Positions 17,645 to 32,689 of a stretch of DNA of 32,715 nt are shown here, piece by piece; the stretch's first letter is position 1; each line of letters begins with the position of its first letter. The position numbers were made by a program, and so were the translations under genes. Location: NCBI RefSeq assembly GCF_053078305.1, contig NZ_CP166878.1. The stretch is one strand, 5' to 3'. The DNA comes from a plasmid. The notes under the pieces are model-generated. The model was not told where the DNA came from and ran no database searches. It saw nothing but the letters and a program-made list of their open reading frames with translations.

Positions 17645-17727
17645 TGCAACAACCCCCTGATATCTCTCTTAGAGCTTTTGCGGGGCCAAAGAAGATAATC
17701 AGGGGGTCCAAAGCAGGCTTTTGCCTG
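17645..17727 (-). ncRNA. Predicted CopA/Inc-type antisense RNA controlling repA
   Basis: A minus-strand promoter reads TTGTAT (17761-17756), a 16-nt spacer, then TATAAT (17739-17734). The transcript would form a small hairpin (caggc/gcctg, 17713-17726). It would then form a long bulged hairpin closed by CCCCCTGAT/ATCAGGGGG (17653-17706), followed by the tail UUGUUGCAUU. It lies 55-130 nt upstream of repA, as in IncFII replicons. Confidence 0.55.
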
Positions 17728-17780
17728 TAAAGGATTATAGCAAATGCATTTTTCAATACAAGACTACTGCCCGGCAATAA

Positions 17781-29328: not shown

Positions 29329-29925
29329 CTATTGCATTCCCTTTTTTTCTATCAGTGTTGAAAGTTTTTCGCTGTATTCTTTTCGATTATGATGTAATTT
29401 TAGCCTAACGTTAGAAAACTTTTTAAGAACAACTCTTCTATTGCTATAGAAGTCCTTTTTTGATATTTCTCCACAAAGATAAAGAATCCGTTGTTGCTTA
29501 ATGATGTTATCTGTAAGGGTGATAAGGGATATCATCATCATAACAACAGGCGATATAAGAACAGGTATTTTTATTTTTTTGTTATCATTATTTATATGGT
29601 TGTATATATCTTTATAATTTGGTATTTCTGAAACAGTTTGTTTTAAGTGTTCGTAATGCGACGAAAACTCATCTTTTTGAATACGGATAATTTCTTCTGC
29701 TTTTGGCAATAATGATTTTGCAACTATATGTTTTATATAGTGCTCTTTGTTTTTATAACGTTTTAGATTGCTTGATGTAAAAAGAATTTCAAGATATTTA
29801 ATTGTATTAATCGCATCGGTAACATGATGCTTGTGAATAAGTTTTTCACTATGTAATTTGTTGTCAATTTCTCCAATAAGAAATTGATCATTTATTCTTA
29901 AATTAAGTTGTTTTCTCTCCATCAT
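29329..29925 (-). CDS. Hypothetical protein with one central transmembrane helix (AT-rich operon, gene 2)
   Basis: The 198-aa ORF has a very Lys/Asn/Ile-rich composition and a single hydrophobic segment (IPVLISPVVMMMISLITL). It has an ATGA overlap with the upstream gene. Confidence 0.6.
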   Translation of the reverse strand: MMERKQLNLRINDQFLIGEIDNKLHSEKLIHKHHVTDAINTIKYLEILFTSSNLKRYKNKEHYIKHIVAKSLLPKAEEIIRIQKDEFSSHYEHLKQTVSEIPNYKDIYNHINNDNKKIKIPVLISPVVMMMISLITLTDNIIKQQRILYLCGEISKKDFYSNRRVVLKKFSNVRLKLHHNRKEYSEKLSTLIEKKGMQ

Positions 29926-30380
29926 ATATACCCACCTTTTTCTTCAACTAGTGTCAGTTTATCAGTCGATGCGATTTTGTTACCACTCATAAAAAACATA
30001 CTGACCCATAAGTACAAATCTGATTCATAGTAAAATCCTTCGTGTTTTTTTAGTTTGCTTAAAGTGCTATAATGTTCATCCTTATTTTTTGCATAATAAA
30101 GTTTGACAATAAGGTAACACTCTTCCTGTGTTCCCTTTGATAAACACCAATCGAATATTCCATCCCATGAGATATTTTCTAAGCTAAAAAAGTTCTGTTT
30201 TCTTAATTTCTGGCGTTGTCTGTTTAAAAGAATGCTTTGTTGAGTATCGTTGTATTGCTGGGCACCAAGAACAGGATCTTCACAGCGAACGCCACGAACA
30301 GGGCGTTTGTCAAATGACAGTTCCCATAGGTTAATATCTGGTATGAACTCGTAATCTTCCGGTTTCGCCAGACGGAACAT
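29922..30380 (-). CDS. Hypothetical protein (AT-rich operon, gene 1)
   Basis: I prefer the ATG at 30380, which has an AAGGA ribosome-binding site, over the ORF-track start at 30449. The product is about 152 aa, soluble, and of no family I recognise. Confidence 0.6.
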   Translation of the reverse strand: MFRLAKPEDYEFIPDINLWELSFDKRPVRGVRCEDPVLGAQQYNDTQQSILLNRQRQKLRKQNFFSLENISWDGIFDWCLSKGTQEECYLIVKLYYAKNKDEHYSTLSKLKKHEGFYYESDLYLWVSMFFMSGNKIASTDKLTLVEEKGGYI

Positions 30381-30460
30381 AACGCTATCCTTTGTCTGTT
30401 GTGTGTTCGGTAGTTCTGGTTTACCGTAAAACAAAAATTTTTTCAACAAAGGTGTTTAAT

Positions 30461-30676
30461 ATGAGCGATAAGATCCAAGAAATCACACAAAAAATTGAGA
30501 AATTGCAGATAAAATTGAGCAAAATTGAAGAGGAAAAAAACAAGATACAATCAAAGCTGGTTAAGTTAGAAGAAGAGAAAAAATCAATACAGCGCAAGCT
30601 GATTCTACAGGAGAAAAGAGAAGAGCTTGAAATGCTTTTAGACAAAGAAAGTTTTGATATTTTATTCAATAAATGA
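30461..30676 (+). CDS. Small coiled-coil protein
   Basis: The ORF is 71 aa from the ATG at 30461. It has heptad-like K/E/L/I repeats (KIEKLQIKLSKIEEEKNKIQSKLVKLEEEKKSIQRKL). It runs divergently from the AT-rich operon. Confidence 0.5.
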   Translation: MSDKIQEITQKIEKLQIKLSKIEEEKNKIQSKLVKLEEEKKSIQRKLILQEKREELEMLLDKESFDILFNK

Positions 30677-30692
30677 GCATGATTTTTGGGAG

Positions 30693-30721
30693 AATTGCCC
30701 TCTGATTATCAGAGGGCAATT
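30693..30721 (+). terminator. Terminator-like hairpin after the coiled-coil gene
   Basis: An 11-bp perfect stem (aattgccctct/agagggcaatt) has a 7-nt loop. The following T run is short. Confidence 0.5.
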
Positions 30722-30942
30722 TGTCATTGGTAGTGCCTATTACCGTTAGTTATGATCACGAAAAACGCGATGATTGTTCATTACAATGCCCTATCGTTAG
30801 ACAGGACATGTGAGCGTTTTATCAACAACGTAAGCAGAATTTTTTGCAGAAATGATCCTGCATCAATACTGAAAATCGTTGTTGTCTTACATGTGTTAAA
30901 CATGATTTTTTAGTCAATTTCATAACAAAATATACCTACGTT

Positions 30943-31883
30943 TTTTTGGGAAGTCCTCTTACTGAACCAACAGAAAGAGGACGAAAAAGAGGAAACATGA
31001 ATGTTTCCTCTGCCATGTTACTACCGTGAATTTTCAGCTACTTATCTGTACTGGTTGCCTCCAGTATTTTCAGATTCATCTACAGACTTCGGCTATATCG
31101 TCTGTAGATTTTTGCGCCTACTCGTTCACTCTCCCACACTCAGGAATGTAATTTCGGTGCCACCCGAAATTTTCCAGAGTGCTTCCCACGTTAGCTGATC
31201 TTGTCGGGATAACCCGCCACTGGCTCAGACAAACTACTAGGCTACGCCTTACCATTTCTGGCTTTCAGGGGGCCGAGATTCCAAAGCACCTCCCTTACTC
31301 ATAATTTGCCGTCAACACCATAGCCAGACACTTAAGTCATGGCTGGTTATCACTTACCCGAATGCGACCTCTTCGGACGCAATTACAGGCTTGAGCTTTA
31401 CAGCGATCTGCAAAGGTTGCCCCTCACAGTACCGACGTTTCCAGGTTTCCCCTCAACGCCCTGACACCTCACGATGCCCTCAGCAGCCCACCTGTCGGGA
31501 ATATGTTGTACCTTCTCAAGCACCCCATATTCGGGATTTTCACCCGTTCAAGATCAACAGGGATCACGTAGTCACCTACGTTCCCGTTTCCGTGTCGCCC
31601 AGTCTCACGCTTTGGCGTGGATTGGGTCGGACAGGGGAGTTTCACCCCCGAACGCCCTTCGTAGCCGTACCAGCCCAATTACAGGCATACGGCTTCGGCA
31701 GTAACTGTTATCAGGGTTGGCAGTCCTGATAACTCACCTTCGTTTGGCAGACGAAGGCTTTTGGCTTTTTTCGTCTTTCGACTTCCCAAAAATGCGTCGA
31801 GAGTTGGCAGCTCGCAACGCACGTTTTGTTACGTAAGCGATGCTTGATAGTCCGGCGCCCGAAAGGCTCGCATCGAGCCGGAC
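30943..31883 (-). ncRNA. ORF-less group II intron-like ribozyme with domain order D5-D6-D1-D2-D3
   Basis: All coordinates are plus-strand and the RNA is read on the minus strand.
- Domain V is AGCCGUAUGCCUGUAAUUGGGCUGGUACGGCU (31694-31663). It has the AGC triad, a 2-nt bulge and a 5-bp upper stem, and compares with the consensus GAGCCGUAUGCGAUGAAAGUCGCACGUACGGUUC.
- A domain VI-like hairpin with a GAAA loop and a bulged A (at 31627) spans 31657-31624.
- Downstream lies domain I-like sequence, including GGGUGAAAAUCCCGAA.
- A J2/3-domain III-like motif, UAGUAGUUUGUCUGAG, lies at about 31240-31225.
- The 13-nt termini UUUUUGGGAAGUC (31792-31780) and GACUUCCCAAAAA (30955-30943) are complementary.
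- A promoter-like sequence reads TTGCGC (31918-31913), a 17-nt spacer, then TATTAT (31895-31890).
- No reverse-transcriptase ORF is present. Confidence 0.55.
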
Positions 31884-31984
31884 ATCAGTATAATATTTAA
31901 CCTGTAAGCGCAGCGCAAGGAATCTCTTTATAAGGTATTCCCATATGTTGATTTCTTTTATGTAGCGGTTACTACATAGCTTTT

Positions 31985-32689
31985 ATGAGGATTTCGATGA
32001 TTTACCGTTTTAAAACCGATTTTATGCGTCAGATAGCCATGCTGTTTTCGCTGGGATATACAAGGTGGTTTGGTGGCGAAATTCCTCTAAACCCTCACTA
32101 TAAATTCGTGTCACTAAAAGCACGTTTTGATGAACTCTACGCTATCAATGCAACAGCACAACAACGTTTCAGGAGAAGAGAAAAAGGAGTAGCAAACTGC
32201 AAATTTCTTGTCTGGTTTGATGAAAAAAATGCAACTCTTTTATGGGTGTTACTTGCAACAGAAGGGGATGTATACAATGAAGAGAAATTTTATGATGGTA
32301 TGAATAAAAAAACTCGTATTTCTGTTTCAGGTTATGAACTAAAAACAGTTCCACATCGAGGTAGAAAACCTAGCGTTTCATGGGCTATGAAGAAAGAAAC
32401 TTATGAAAAGTGGCATGCGGATATAAAGAAGTCGATAAGAACAAGAAATGATGAGAATATAGAAAAATTATGGTATTCACTCAGGAGGGTGGCAGGGTTT
32501 AGTGAGTTACGTAGACAGGTATTTAAGTTACAGAGATATGCAATGACAGAGTGGAAACGCTCCAGAAGAGGTGAATATCCTTATGAGAAGATTTTTGTTG
32601 GATGGTTAGGACGATTTAAACAAAGTGAAACCATCACAGATGAAGAGCTTTTGTTAATATCGAAGTCAAAAAAAGCTGATATCTTTTAG
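31985..32689 (+). CDS. Hypothetical basic protein
   Basis: The 234-aa ORF contains several early Met codons, so the start is uncertain. It is divergent from the ribozyme-like locus. I recognise no family. Confidence 0.5.
   Translation: MRISMIYRFKTDFMRQIAMLFSLGYTRWFGGEIPLNPHYKFVSLKARFDELYAINATAQQRFRRREKGVANCKFLVWFDEKNATLLWVLLATEGDVYNEEKFYDGMNKKTRISVSGYELKTVPHRGRKPSVSWAMKKETYEKWHADIKKSIRTRNDENIEKLWYSLRRVAGFSELRRQVFKLQRYAMTEWKRSRRGEYPYEKIFVGWLGRFKQSETITDEELLLISKSKKADIF

Follow-up and report, generated by a model that had tools for sequence, protein, structure and literature searches.

A circularly permuted group II RNA beside an acpG gene on plasmids of Escherichia coli

The locus

We analyzed a 32,715-nt stretch of the Escherichia coli plasmid NZ_CP166878.1 (assembly GCF_053078305.1). 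We will call the whole stretch the window, and all coordinates are positions in it. The minus strand of the window holds a structured RNA at about 31762–31011, with a leader and a trailer that take the unit out to about 31883–30918. A homolog of the acpG gene diverges from the RNA on the plus strand, and another open reading frame (ORF) lies downstream of the RNA. The G+C content of the RNA region is 0.51–0.55, against 0.30–0.40 in its flanks. The longest ORF on the RNA strand within the element has just 69 codons and is not conserved.

The first-pass annotation, which was made from the letters alone, took this region for a natural circularly permuted (CP) group II ribozyme, with domains V and VI (D5 and D6) ahead of domains I–IV (D1–D4). 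We agree, given the RNA's near-identity to a row of the published alignment, its colinear landmarks, its covariation, and a covariance model that recovers published family members left out of its training. The segment at about 31762–31011 very probably encodes a ribozyme of the CP group II family (the "T-large" RNA) that Roth, Weinberg et al. published in 2021, and the membership of the RNA in this family is secure. The class had already been published; the locus is a correct rediscovery and provides an additional member in a new, tractable host. What may be new are an outer helix that closes the unit and the reverse transcriptase (RT)-like fold that is predicted for AcpG.

CP group II RNAs have been known since 2021, and cryo-EM structures exist. 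They are about 900 nt long, with the order P1, P2, D5, D6, linker, D1–D4; they are often plasmid-borne and yield small circles along with branched RNA (Roth et al. 2021, PMC8637638). The same study demonstrated activity for the family (Cte 1 of Comamonas testosteroni KF-1 and others), and its examples include the RNA of plasmid pPNAP05 from Polaromonas naphthalenivorans.

Identification of the RNA family

When the whole window was compared to the group II families of Rfam 15 (Intron_gpII, RF00029, and group-II-D1D4-1 to -7), nothing reached the gathering threshold. At face value this told against the first-pass annotation, which had named the lack of a significant D1–D4 match as grounds for rejecting it, so we sought homologs. 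Because the element does not score with those Rfam families, we do not assign it to them; it would work as a group II ribozyme does, but it belongs to the separate permuted class.

Using megablast, we found the element on ten E. coli plasmids of about 30 kb, at 99.5–99.9% identity, and we found its core, at 96–97% identity, on two RepL plasmids of about 3 kb. In both cases, the DNA was unannotated. A blastn search for distant relatives identified a conserved core of about 450–480 nt (window positions ~31256–31738) on small plasmids of other genera: Halomonas, Azotobacter, Thiothrix, Paraphotobacterium, Paraburkholderia, Ralstonia, Novacetimonas, and Acinetobacter. A phage collection contained no similar DNA.

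The published alignment has an environmental row, APTF_contig56681/3009-3449, which is identical to the window at 340 of 375 positions (91%). We threaded the window onto the published columns with MAFFT (the rows and the consensus structure line agree at 1991 columns, and its brackets are balanced). In the part from P1 to D1, the window keeps 94 of the 103 consensus pairs (91%). In the 3' half, the signature strings GCUUUGGAAUCUCG, CUAACGUGGGAAG, the D2 loop GUGGCAC, GGGAGA, and GAGUAGG are present in order, and these landmarks are colinear in plasmid homologs from 9 genera. All of the domains lie on one strand, with D5 and D6 on the 5' side of D1 (which starts at 31600), D2 at 31182–31136, and D3/D4 at 31129–31026. 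We set the ends of the core at 31762 and 31011 by analogy with the published Polaromonas coordinates (−162 to +589 relative to the 5' splice site).

We also built a covariance model (R1) of the module that runs from D5 through D6 and the linker to the 5' splice site. Sequences from Polaromonas, Novacetimonas, and Acinetobacter were left out of its training. The model recovers the published pPNAP05 RNA of Polaromonas (97.8 bits, E = 1e-31), as well as the RNAs of Novacetimonas (96.8 bits) and Acinetobacter (52–60 bits). In the window it finds exactly one site, at 31700–31575 on the minus strand, with 138 bits.

We considered whether a D5–D6 remnant and, after it, a D1–D3 remnant, each truncated independently from an ordinary intron with an RT gene, might lie side by side. 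The domain order taken by itself is compatible with this, and Rfam finds no intact intron. However, homologs from at least 9 genera, on plasmids that are not related to each other, repeat this order and spacing together with the short linker and the family-specific P1/P2 pseudoknots. The arrangement is also that of a published, experimentally active family, and there is no remnant of an RT gene. We give this explanation almost no credence and regard it as effectively refuted.

The RNA in the window shares with the published CP group II RNAs the order P1-P2-D5-D6-linker-D1-D2-D3-D4; a D5 with the AGC triad and a UN bulge; a bulged A in D6; the splice-site motifs NU (3') and GGGCG (5') around a short linker; exon-binding site 1 (EBS1); the pseudoknots P2–D2 and P1–3' end; the junction J2/3; and the E-loop strings of D3. 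Also like them, it has no internal ORF, is located on a plasmid, and has an adjacent, divergent acpG. It differs in its host (the published taxon list includes Ralstonia pickettii, Acinetobacter, and Polaromonas pPNAP05, but no Escherichia or other Enterobacteriaceae; PMC8637638), in having a third hairpin with a CUGCCAA loop upstream of P1, in its small circle (20 nt), and in a covarying 13-bp helix between leader and trailer that lies beyond the published boundaries and encloses a terminator-like hairpin.

Canonical bacterial group II introns, such as Ll.LtrB, the IIC intron of O. iheyensis, and T.el4h, have the D5 triad and bulge, the branch-point A of D6, J2/3, and the pairing of EBS1 with intron-binding site 1 (IBS1) in common with this RNA. 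Their GUGYG-like 5' end corresponds to GGGCG in the window, and by homology the reaction would again consist of two transesterifications. In contrast, the domains in the window are permuted, and the splice sites lie inside the RNA with their order reversed. Canonical introns give ligated exons and a lariat, while the CP class gives a circle and a branched RNA. Unlike canonical introns, the RNA in the window has no ORF in D4, shows no evidence of retromobility, and has no Rfam group II score. ORF-less and split, trans-splicing group II introns are similar in that they lack an internal ORF, may have a separately encoded helper, and use long-range helices to reassemble their domains. The RNA in the window differs from these as well, as it is a single permuted transcript and its reaction would be back-splicing.

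Domains V and VI and the predicted circle

The catalytic end of the RNA has these features:

31663–31694, minus strand: domain V, AGCCGUAUGCCUGUAAUUGGGCUGGUACGGCU, with the AGC triad, an 8-bp lower helix, a UG bulge, a 5-bp upper helix, and a UAAU loop
31624–31657, minus strand: domain VI, GGGCGUUCGGGGGUGAAACUCCCCUGUCCGACCC, with a bulged branch-point A at 31627 and a UU/UC internal loop
31621–31623, minus strand: 3' splice-site nucleotides AAU; cleavage would follow U31621 (the family consensus is AnU/C, with the slash at the cleavage site, and CAAUC is invariant in close homologs)
31601–31620, minus strand: linker, CCACGCCAAAGCGUGAGACU, the predicted 20-nt circle, which has a 5-bp hairpin and IBS1 (GAGACU, 31606–31601)
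31596–31600, minus strand: GGGCG, the published 5' splice-site motif; cleavage would fall between U31601 and G31600

The first-pass annotation had placed D5, as well as D6 with its bulged A, exactly at these positions, and both domains covary. D5 fits the published consensus, GRAGCYGnRUGCY...GCUnGYnCGGC. In an alignment of 13 sequences, 94% of the cells in the D5 helix are paired, and 7 of its 13 pairs have changed on both sides; for D6, the corresponding values are 98% and 9 of 11. Together, D5 and D6 are paired in 95.8% of cells (37–48% if the partners are slid), both sides have changed in 16 of 24 pairs, and none of 500 shuffles match the observed covariation score. The AGC and GCU elements of D5 and the string CAAUC are invariant or nearly so in this alignment.

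Roth et al. (PMC8637638) define the 3' splice site as "NU" directly after D6 and the 5' splice site as GGGCG, with both excluded from the circle. By these definitions, the splice sites lie between 31621 and 31620 and between 31601 and 31600: the window reads ...GUCCG-A-CCC AAU / CCACGCCAAAGCGUGAGACU / GGGCGAC..., and A31627 is the seventh nucleotide back from the 3' splice site. The string GGGCGAC is invariant in all 13 aligned homologs. The register of EBS1 and IBS1 also fixes the 5' splice site between 31601 and 31600. Across the family, a D1 loop with the sequence AAYYUC pairs with the last six nucleotides of the linker in 70 of 78 cells, as compared to 30–46 of 78 in shifted registers. In the window, EBS1 (AAUCUC, 31280–31275) and IBS1 (GAGACU, 31606–31601) pair at five of six positions. 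The first-pass annotation had put the 5' splice site at GUGAG (31608) or GUGAU (31567). Both strings exist, but the site is GGGCG at 31600–31596, and the predicted circle is 31620–31601 rather than a segment that ends at 31608 or 31567.

At 20 nt, the linker that would be circularized is within the family's range of 15–86 nt. The homologs have predicted circles of 19–70 nt with no conserved sequence. All members of the enterobacterial clade have a 20-nt circle, in which a 5-bp hairpin, maintained by compensatory changes (CACGC/GCGUG, CGCGC/GCGUG, or CAUGC/GCAUG), precedes IBS1. As the family does not share a circle sequence, a sequence-specific circle is a less probable seat of the conserved function than the ribonucleoprotein or the processing event.

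We also noticed two copies of an 11-mer, GCCUGUAAUUG, in the RNA. One (31686–31676, minus strand) forms the upper helix and loop of D5. The other (31390–31380, minus strand) is in D1, in the context AAGCCUGUAAUUGCG, and lies inside the family-conserved string RCnUnUAAY.

Domains I–IV and the contacts between them and the 5' hairpins

The remaining features of the core are:

31737–31757, minus strand: P1 hairpin, CCUUCGU-CUGCCAA-ACGAAGG, threaded on the published P1 columns; the loop pairs with UGGCAG at 31016–31011
31707–31733, minus strand: P2 hairpin with the loop CUGCCAA, from threading; the loop pairs with the D2 loop
31183–31600, minus strand: domain I, from threading onto the published alignment and from colinear landmarks
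31545–31530, minus strand: domain I motif GGGUGAAAAUCCCGAA
31287–31273, minus strand: EBS1 loop GCUUUGGAAUCUCGG
31239–31224, minus strand: domain I motif UAGUAGUUUGUCUGAG
31194–31182, minus strand: domain I motif CUAACGUGGGAAG
31136–31182, minus strand: domain II; its loop GUGGCAC (31163–31157) pairs with the P2 loop
31130–31135, minus strand: purine-rich junction J2/3, GGGAGA, which is near-invariant in homologs and fits the published consensus GGGAGAYYRRnY
31026–31129, minus strand: domains III and IV, with the closing helix GUGAA (31129–31125) / UUCAC (31030–31026) and AAGUAGCUGAAAA at 31043–31031
31123–31117, minus strand: GAGUAGG, an E-loop-type motif at the base of D3, identified from the consensus
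31109–31078 and 31066–31049, minus strand: inner hairpins of D3/D4, from an inverted-repeat search
31011–31016, minus strand: 3' tail UGGCAG, the partner of the P1 loop and the end of the published RNA model

The D1 motifs GGGUGAAAAUCCCGAA and UAGUAGUUUGUCUGAG, on which the first-pass annotation had relied, do exist and do lie within D1. That annotation had also suggested looking for covariance across blastn homologs, and D5/D6, EBS1–IBS1, P2–D2, and the closing helix of D3 all covary.

Of the contacts that are specific to the family, the P2–D2 pseudoknot is the one that is best backed by covariation (PMC8637638). Where the P2 loop meets the D2 loop, E. coli and Azotobacter have UGCCA:UGGCA, Paraburkholderia and Ralstonia have UACCA:UGGUA, and Thermus has GUGGCA:UGCCAC. 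The pseudoknot of the P1 loop with the 3' end has also been described, with a narrower distribution (PMC8637638). Its two strands have changed jointly: the pairing is CUGCCA:UGGCAG on the 30-kb plasmid and UUGCC:GGCAA on the 3-kb plasmids.

RNAalifold, run on the 3' module, independently recovered the outer stem of D2, with the pair types GU/UA/CG and AU/GC/UA. It also found the closing helix of D3/D4, in which 5 of 6 pairs have compensatory changes on both sides. The strings in D3/D4 fit the consensus motifs nAGUAGGn and YGAAAG.

The RNA has three successive hairpins with CUGCCAA loops (31820–31794, 31757–31737, and 31733–31707, minus strand) for two UGGCA partner sites, which are the D2 loop (31163–31157) and the tail (31016–31011). 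The first of these hairpins, hairpin A, could compete with the loops of P1 and P2, could regulate, or could pair in trans.

Leader, trailer, and outer closing helix

Outside the core, we noted these features:

31890–31918, minus strand: promoter-like site, with −35 TTGCGC (31918–31913), a 17-nt spacer, and −10 TATTAT (31895–31890)
31850–31883, minus strand: 5' leader hairpin GUCCGGCUCGAUGCGAGCCUUUCGGGCGCCGGAC, read from the sequence and outside the published RNA boundaries
31824–31836, minus strand: 5' arm of a possible outermost complement, UUACGUAACAAAA, a weak candidate for pairing with 30930–30918 (11 of 13 positions are complementary)
31794–31820, minus strand: hairpin A, an additional CUGCCAA-loop hairpin on the 5' side, whose loop is the third copy of the P1/P2 type
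31780–31797, minus strand: 5' arm of the outer closing helix, with 13 perfect base pairs at 31792–31780, UUUUUGGGAAGUC
30984–31011, minus strand: terminator-like hairpin AGAGGAAACAU-UC-AUGUUUCCUCU followed by UUUUU, called by a terminator scanner (hairpin 31011–30988)
30953–30982, minus strand: second 3' hairpin GUCCUCUUUCUG-UUGGUU-CAGUAAGAGGAC, from an inverted-repeat search, with a structural analog in the 3-kb copy
30938–30955, minus strand: 3' arm of the outer closing helix, with 13 perfect base pairs at 30955–30943, GACUUCCCAAAAA
30918–30930, minus strand: 3' arm of the possible outermost complement, UUUUGUUAUGAAA, also a weak candidate from the inverted-repeat search

The first-pass annotation described the RNA as a plasmid-borne transcription unit of its own with a good sigma70-like promoter. 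We accept the transcription unit, with a start that we infer at the promoter-like site. The hexamers are present, but "good" overstates the promoter: the −35 fits the consensus at only 3 of 6 positions, and a promoter scanner passed over the site. The leaders of two other enterobacterial loci (L017 and L018) have promoter-like hexamers at the equivalent place, downstream of a conserved AGAGAUUCC. In the window and in both of these loci, AGAGAUUCC is just upstream of the −35 of the RNA. The promoter of the RNA and the upstream region of acpG are back to back and share about 100 bp (31880–31985), and the conserved AGAGAUUCC suggests that the divergent promoters are co-regulated.

The stem of hairpin A is kept in the 3-kb plasmid by compensatory changes (GCGUUGCGAG/CUCUCGACGC versus ACUUUGCAGA/UCUGUGAGGU), and analogous hairpins are found in L017 and L018. 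The core of the outermost complement, GUAACA/UGUUAC, is also found in the flanks of the 3-kb plasmid. The terminator-like hairpin is not conserved in the 3-kb copy, and a similar hairpin with a U-rich tract is present in L018. This hairpin, which the first-pass annotation does not mention, could be a leaky terminator or a structural element, or it could set apart two isoforms of the RNA.

The perfect 13-bp helix between the ends of the unit, which the first-pass annotation had pointed out, is real. It extends to 16 of 18 bp, and none of 200 shuffles reach a 13-bp complement. The 3-kb plasmid has a perfect 12-bp complement of another sequence at homologous positions (UUUGUUUGAGUC / GACUCAAACAAA, at 1260–1271 / 2087–2098 of L001). 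Three further enterobacterial variants, which we located through their AcpG genes (L016, L017, and L018), keep the helix at the same places (UUUUUUAAGC/GCUUAAAAAA, UUUAAGUCCU/AGGACUUAAA, and UUAAGCCU/AGGCUUAA). The helices of L017 and L016 lengthen once G-U pairs are allowed; for L018, the G-U-tolerant scan chose another pairing, so its helix rests on the first comparison. Unrelated perfect helices of 11–12 bp are present at comparable offsets in Azotobacter, Thiothrix, and Polaromonas, where at most 2 of 200 shuffles reach them. The Polaromonas arms (about 25–36 / 1016–1027 in L010) fall outside the published boundaries of 83–834. Overall, a helix of 10–13 bp with differing sequences is found in at least 8 lineages. 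In Halomonas, Paraburkholderia, and Ralstonia, we did not find the closing helix; these have a 5' hairpin with the loop CUGACCA, which is complementary to the loop GUGGUU of a 3' hairpin. We did not find the closing helix described in PMC8637638, whose text mentions only the pseudoknot of the P1 loop with the 3' end.

Such flanking repeats raise another explanation, in which the unit is a DNA-level or replication-control element (either a mobile cassette with terminal repeats, or a plasmid origin or copy-control RNA) and its likeness to group II is secondary. The inverted repeats do flank the unit, the unit accounts for roughly a quarter of the length of the 3-kb RepL plasmids, and the RNA on pPNAP05 is near the replication origin (PMC8637638). 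On the other hand, deleting the ribozyme from pTT8 left replication unimpaired (PMC8637638), and the covariation throughout the unit is of the RNA type. Also, the sequences of the arms are unrelated between lineages, with only their complementarity conserved, which is unlike the terminal repeats that transposases bind; there is no transposase; and the conserved hairpin A lies outside the arms. For these last three reasons, we rejected the mobile cassette with terminal inverted repeats, and we interpret the arms as an RNA helix that would re-join the permuted ends. We consider a DNA-level or replication-control element to be very unlikely overall.

Evidence for and against catalysis

Comparative evidence shows the fold, the splice sites, EBS1–IBS1, the kissing contacts, the closing helix, and the association with AcpG. 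Several observations weigh against a working CP group II ribozyme in the window. First, Rfam's D5–D6 and D1D4 models, with which the first-pass annotation had proposed to verify its claim, gave no match even at E ≤ 10: across 30500–32300, no group II family was found and all matches were at chance level. This does not refute the claim, as apparently it is a matching Rfam family that is absent, not the ribozyme; the published alignment is the appropriate standard of comparison. Second, threading of the 3' half with MAFFT onto the 1991-column alignment is unreliable (48% of pairs, with many half-occupied), so D2–D4 rest on separate alignments of the plasmid homologs. Third, position −2 of the EBS1–IBS1 pairing is an A-C mismatch in the copies from E. 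coli. Fourth, the D5 loop is UAAU instead of GNRA. Fifth, the terminator-like hairpin lies inside the outer closing helix, so either the helix needs read-through or the hairpin is structural. Finally, self-processing, the circle, and the transcript ends are what we infer for this RNA from its relatives.

A related explanation is that this is a relic of a CP group II ribozyme that has lost catalysis and does not back-splice, and that it is either kept for another reason or decaying. The mismatch at −2, the non-GNRA loop, and the indirect case for activity all fit with this, and Roth et al. (PMC8637638) could not show processing in vivo in Polaromonas. However, a UAAU-type D5 loop along with the same EBS1 is also found in the published Polaromonas member and in other homologs. 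The AGC triad, the UG bulge, the branch-point A, GGGCG, GGGAGA of J2/3, and EBS1 are all intact. Furthermore, the 30-kb and 3-kb copies differ by about 4% in the core, yet the helices are kept by compensatory changes. A relic is thus unlikely, and an active CP group II ribozyme remains our preferred reading.

AcpG

The divergent neighbor of the RNA is:

31985–32689, plus strand: acpG homolog, 234 amino acids, with a predicted RT-like (maturase-like) fold and no conserved catalytic aspartates

Roth et al. (PMC8637638) reported that a conserved ORF, AcpG (TTHC007, about 260 amino acids), is often immediately upstream of the RNA and divergent from it, and stated that it has no homology to any known protein class. 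In the literature that we could search, AcpG is mentioned only in this 2021 paper. By BLASTP, the ORF in the window matches TTHC007 only marginally (E = 0.021), which made it necessary to compare profiles. The hhalign match between a profile of the window ORF's group and a Thermus AcpG profile spans 181 columns (97% probability, E = 1.1e-10) and identifies the ORF as a homolog of AcpG. It is 26–36% identical to the RNA-adjacent ORFs of Azotobacter, Halomonas, Thiothrix, Paraburkholderia, and Paraphotobacterium, and acpG is adjacent to the RNA and divergent from it here and in 9 other loci. In RefSeq records of E. coli, AcpG is annotated as a hypothetical protein.

An AlphaFold2 model of AcpG, built from a 15-sequence alignment, is of high confidence, with a mean predicted local distance difference test score (pLDDT) of 86.4 and a predicted template modeling score (pTM) of 0.82. 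The conserved residues of the protein include Y25, R61, Y117, W143, R176, Q178, and R192. The predicted fold best matches the RTs (maturases) of group II introns. We compared AcpG, rather than the RNA, to group II RT/maturases (PDB 7uim_D, 6me0_C, and 8t2s_D) and to related RTs (G2L4, DRT9, diversity-generating retroelement, and retron). Relative to these proteins, AcpG is small (230–260 amino acids), has no detectable sequence similarity, and has no conserved YxDD; its gene is outside the RNA and often divergent, and its role as a maturase is putative. Neither YxDD nor another invariant acidic pair is conserved in our AcpG alignments (A9, A10, and A11), and by the criteria of sequence AcpG is not an active RT. 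If the fold is assigned correctly, then AcpG would be a small, catalytically dead RT-like protein.

Some of our results count against a link between AcpG and maturases. Although the chain that ranked first in Foldseek is the maturase of a group II intron ribonucleoprotein, the match is not significant (E = 0.28, probability 0.63). AcpG has no match in Pfam, where the RVT and maturase families are included, or in NCBIfam, and no RT match in a sequence-profile search of the PDB. The link comes from predicted structures only. In an exhaustive profile search (E ≤ 1e-3), the AcpG family comprises 1,384 clusters at 50% identity. The best 150 of these 1,384 clusters are mostly 200–300 amino acids, with none of RT length among the matches listed, and ten longer members of the family have no Pfam domain, so there is no sequence bridge to RTs.

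The first-pass annotation had stressed that the RNA has no RT gene or maturase. This is true of the RNA strand, where no ORF exceeds 69 amino acids, but it is probably misleading for the locus, given the predicted maturase-like fold of AcpG. We speculate that CP group II ribozymes are not protein-free relics: AcpG would be a shrunken, dead descendant of an RT/maturase that acts in trans, the leader/trailer helix would be a split D4 stem, and the E. coli plasmids would hold a domesticated, two-gene group II ribonucleoprotein. We put this forward tentatively, as a possibility that falls somewhat short of probable. According to a 2026 preprint on Cte 1, the ribozyme acts without an intron-encoded protein.

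A CpaF/T2SSE-type ATPase is encoded downstream of acpG and in the same direction in two loci. In L018 (3001–4752), it follows acpG directly, and in L021 (the E. coli plasmid pEc631_3, 20424–24129), it follows a 621-amino-acid hypothetical protein.

Proposed mechanism and implications

We propose that the RNA has a promoter of its own, from which it is transcribed away from acpG, and that it folds into a group II core with P1, P2, D5, and D6 ahead of D1–D4. Three contacts would tie the permuted ends together: the kissing of the P2 and D2 loops, the pairing of the P1 loop with the 3' tail, and the outer 13-bp helix of leader and trailer. With IBS1 (GAGACU, 31606–31601) held by EBS1 (AAUCUC, 31280–31275), the 2'-OH of the bulged A31627 in D6 would attack the phosphate that joins U31601 to G31600. 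U31601, with its 3'-OH now free, would then attack the 3' splice site after U31621. The predicted products are a 20-nt circle, CCACGCCAAAGCGUGAGACU, and a ribozyme in two pieces that is branched at A31627. AcpG, with its predicted dead RT/maturase-like fold, may bind the RNA and assist as a maturase-like helper.

The native copies in E. coli had never been annotated and are not detected by any Rfam family, so large structured ribozymes have been missed in the best-studied bacterium. Because the RNA occurs on natural E. coli plasmids, some of only 3 kb, these offer a direct genetic system for this class of ribozyme. If AcpG is derived from a maturase, then the family is a ribonucleoprotein with a recognizable evolutionary path from a mobile intron, and AcpG is a candidate cofactor for the engineered production of circular RNA at physiological Mg2+. 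And if the two-gene ribonucleoprotein does exist, then its function could be dissected genetically in E. coli, where the 3-kb plasmids carry little besides the RNA.

Distribution and plasmid context

Among 5,426 complete E. coli genomes, 20 carry the element, and all copies are on plasmids (14 on plasmids of 27–35 kb and 7 on plasmids of about 3 kb). None of the 20 RefSeq genomes have an annotated feature under the match. Strain FHI_NMBU_11 has both types of plasmid: one of 34 kb with the RNA and AcpG, and one of 3 kb with the RNA but without AcpG (NZ_CP045715.1 and NZ_CP045717.1). Six other genomes have a match on a plasmid of about 3 kb and none of the 30-kb type.

According to the annotation of a near-identical plasmid, the 30-kb plasmid carries a P-type type IV secretion system, ParG/ParA, Rep, SSB, and CcdAB. 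The first-pass annotation had called the plasmid conjugative. This label is only putative: the plasmid has the secretion system, but no relaxase (or RT) is annotated on the near-identical plasmid, and its type according to MOB-suite is non-mobilizable.

The 3-kb plasmids lack AcpG, and what they have in common with the 30-kb plasmid is the RNA and the ORF downstream of it:

29922–30449, minus strand: downstream ORF, 175 amino acids as listed, or about 153 from Met23; its counterpart in L001 is at 2289–2741

The product of this ORF is 72% identical, over 149 amino acids, to that of its counterpart behind the RNA on the 3-kb RepL plasmids. It has no match in Pfam or NCBIfam. The ORF is next to the RNA only in the E. 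coli loci and not in other genera, and its link to the ribozyme is by association only. Between it and the RNA is an ORF for a 94-amino-acid, lysine- and glutamate-rich, coiled-coil-like protein (30392–30676, plus strand), which is partly antisense to the listed start of the downstream ORF and has only weak matches, to coiled-coil families.

We rejected a protein-coding reading of the RNA region. In Halomonas CP098531.1, a coding sequence for a "hypothetical protein" is annotated on the opposite strand across the ribozyme (L004 1006–1830), which is probably a spurious gene call.

Elsewhere in the window, the sole Rfam match at the gathering threshold is the PK-repBA pseudoknot (17651–17778, plus strand, 86.4 bits). 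This is a translational control element of repBA-type replication genes, and it marks the replication region of the plasmid.

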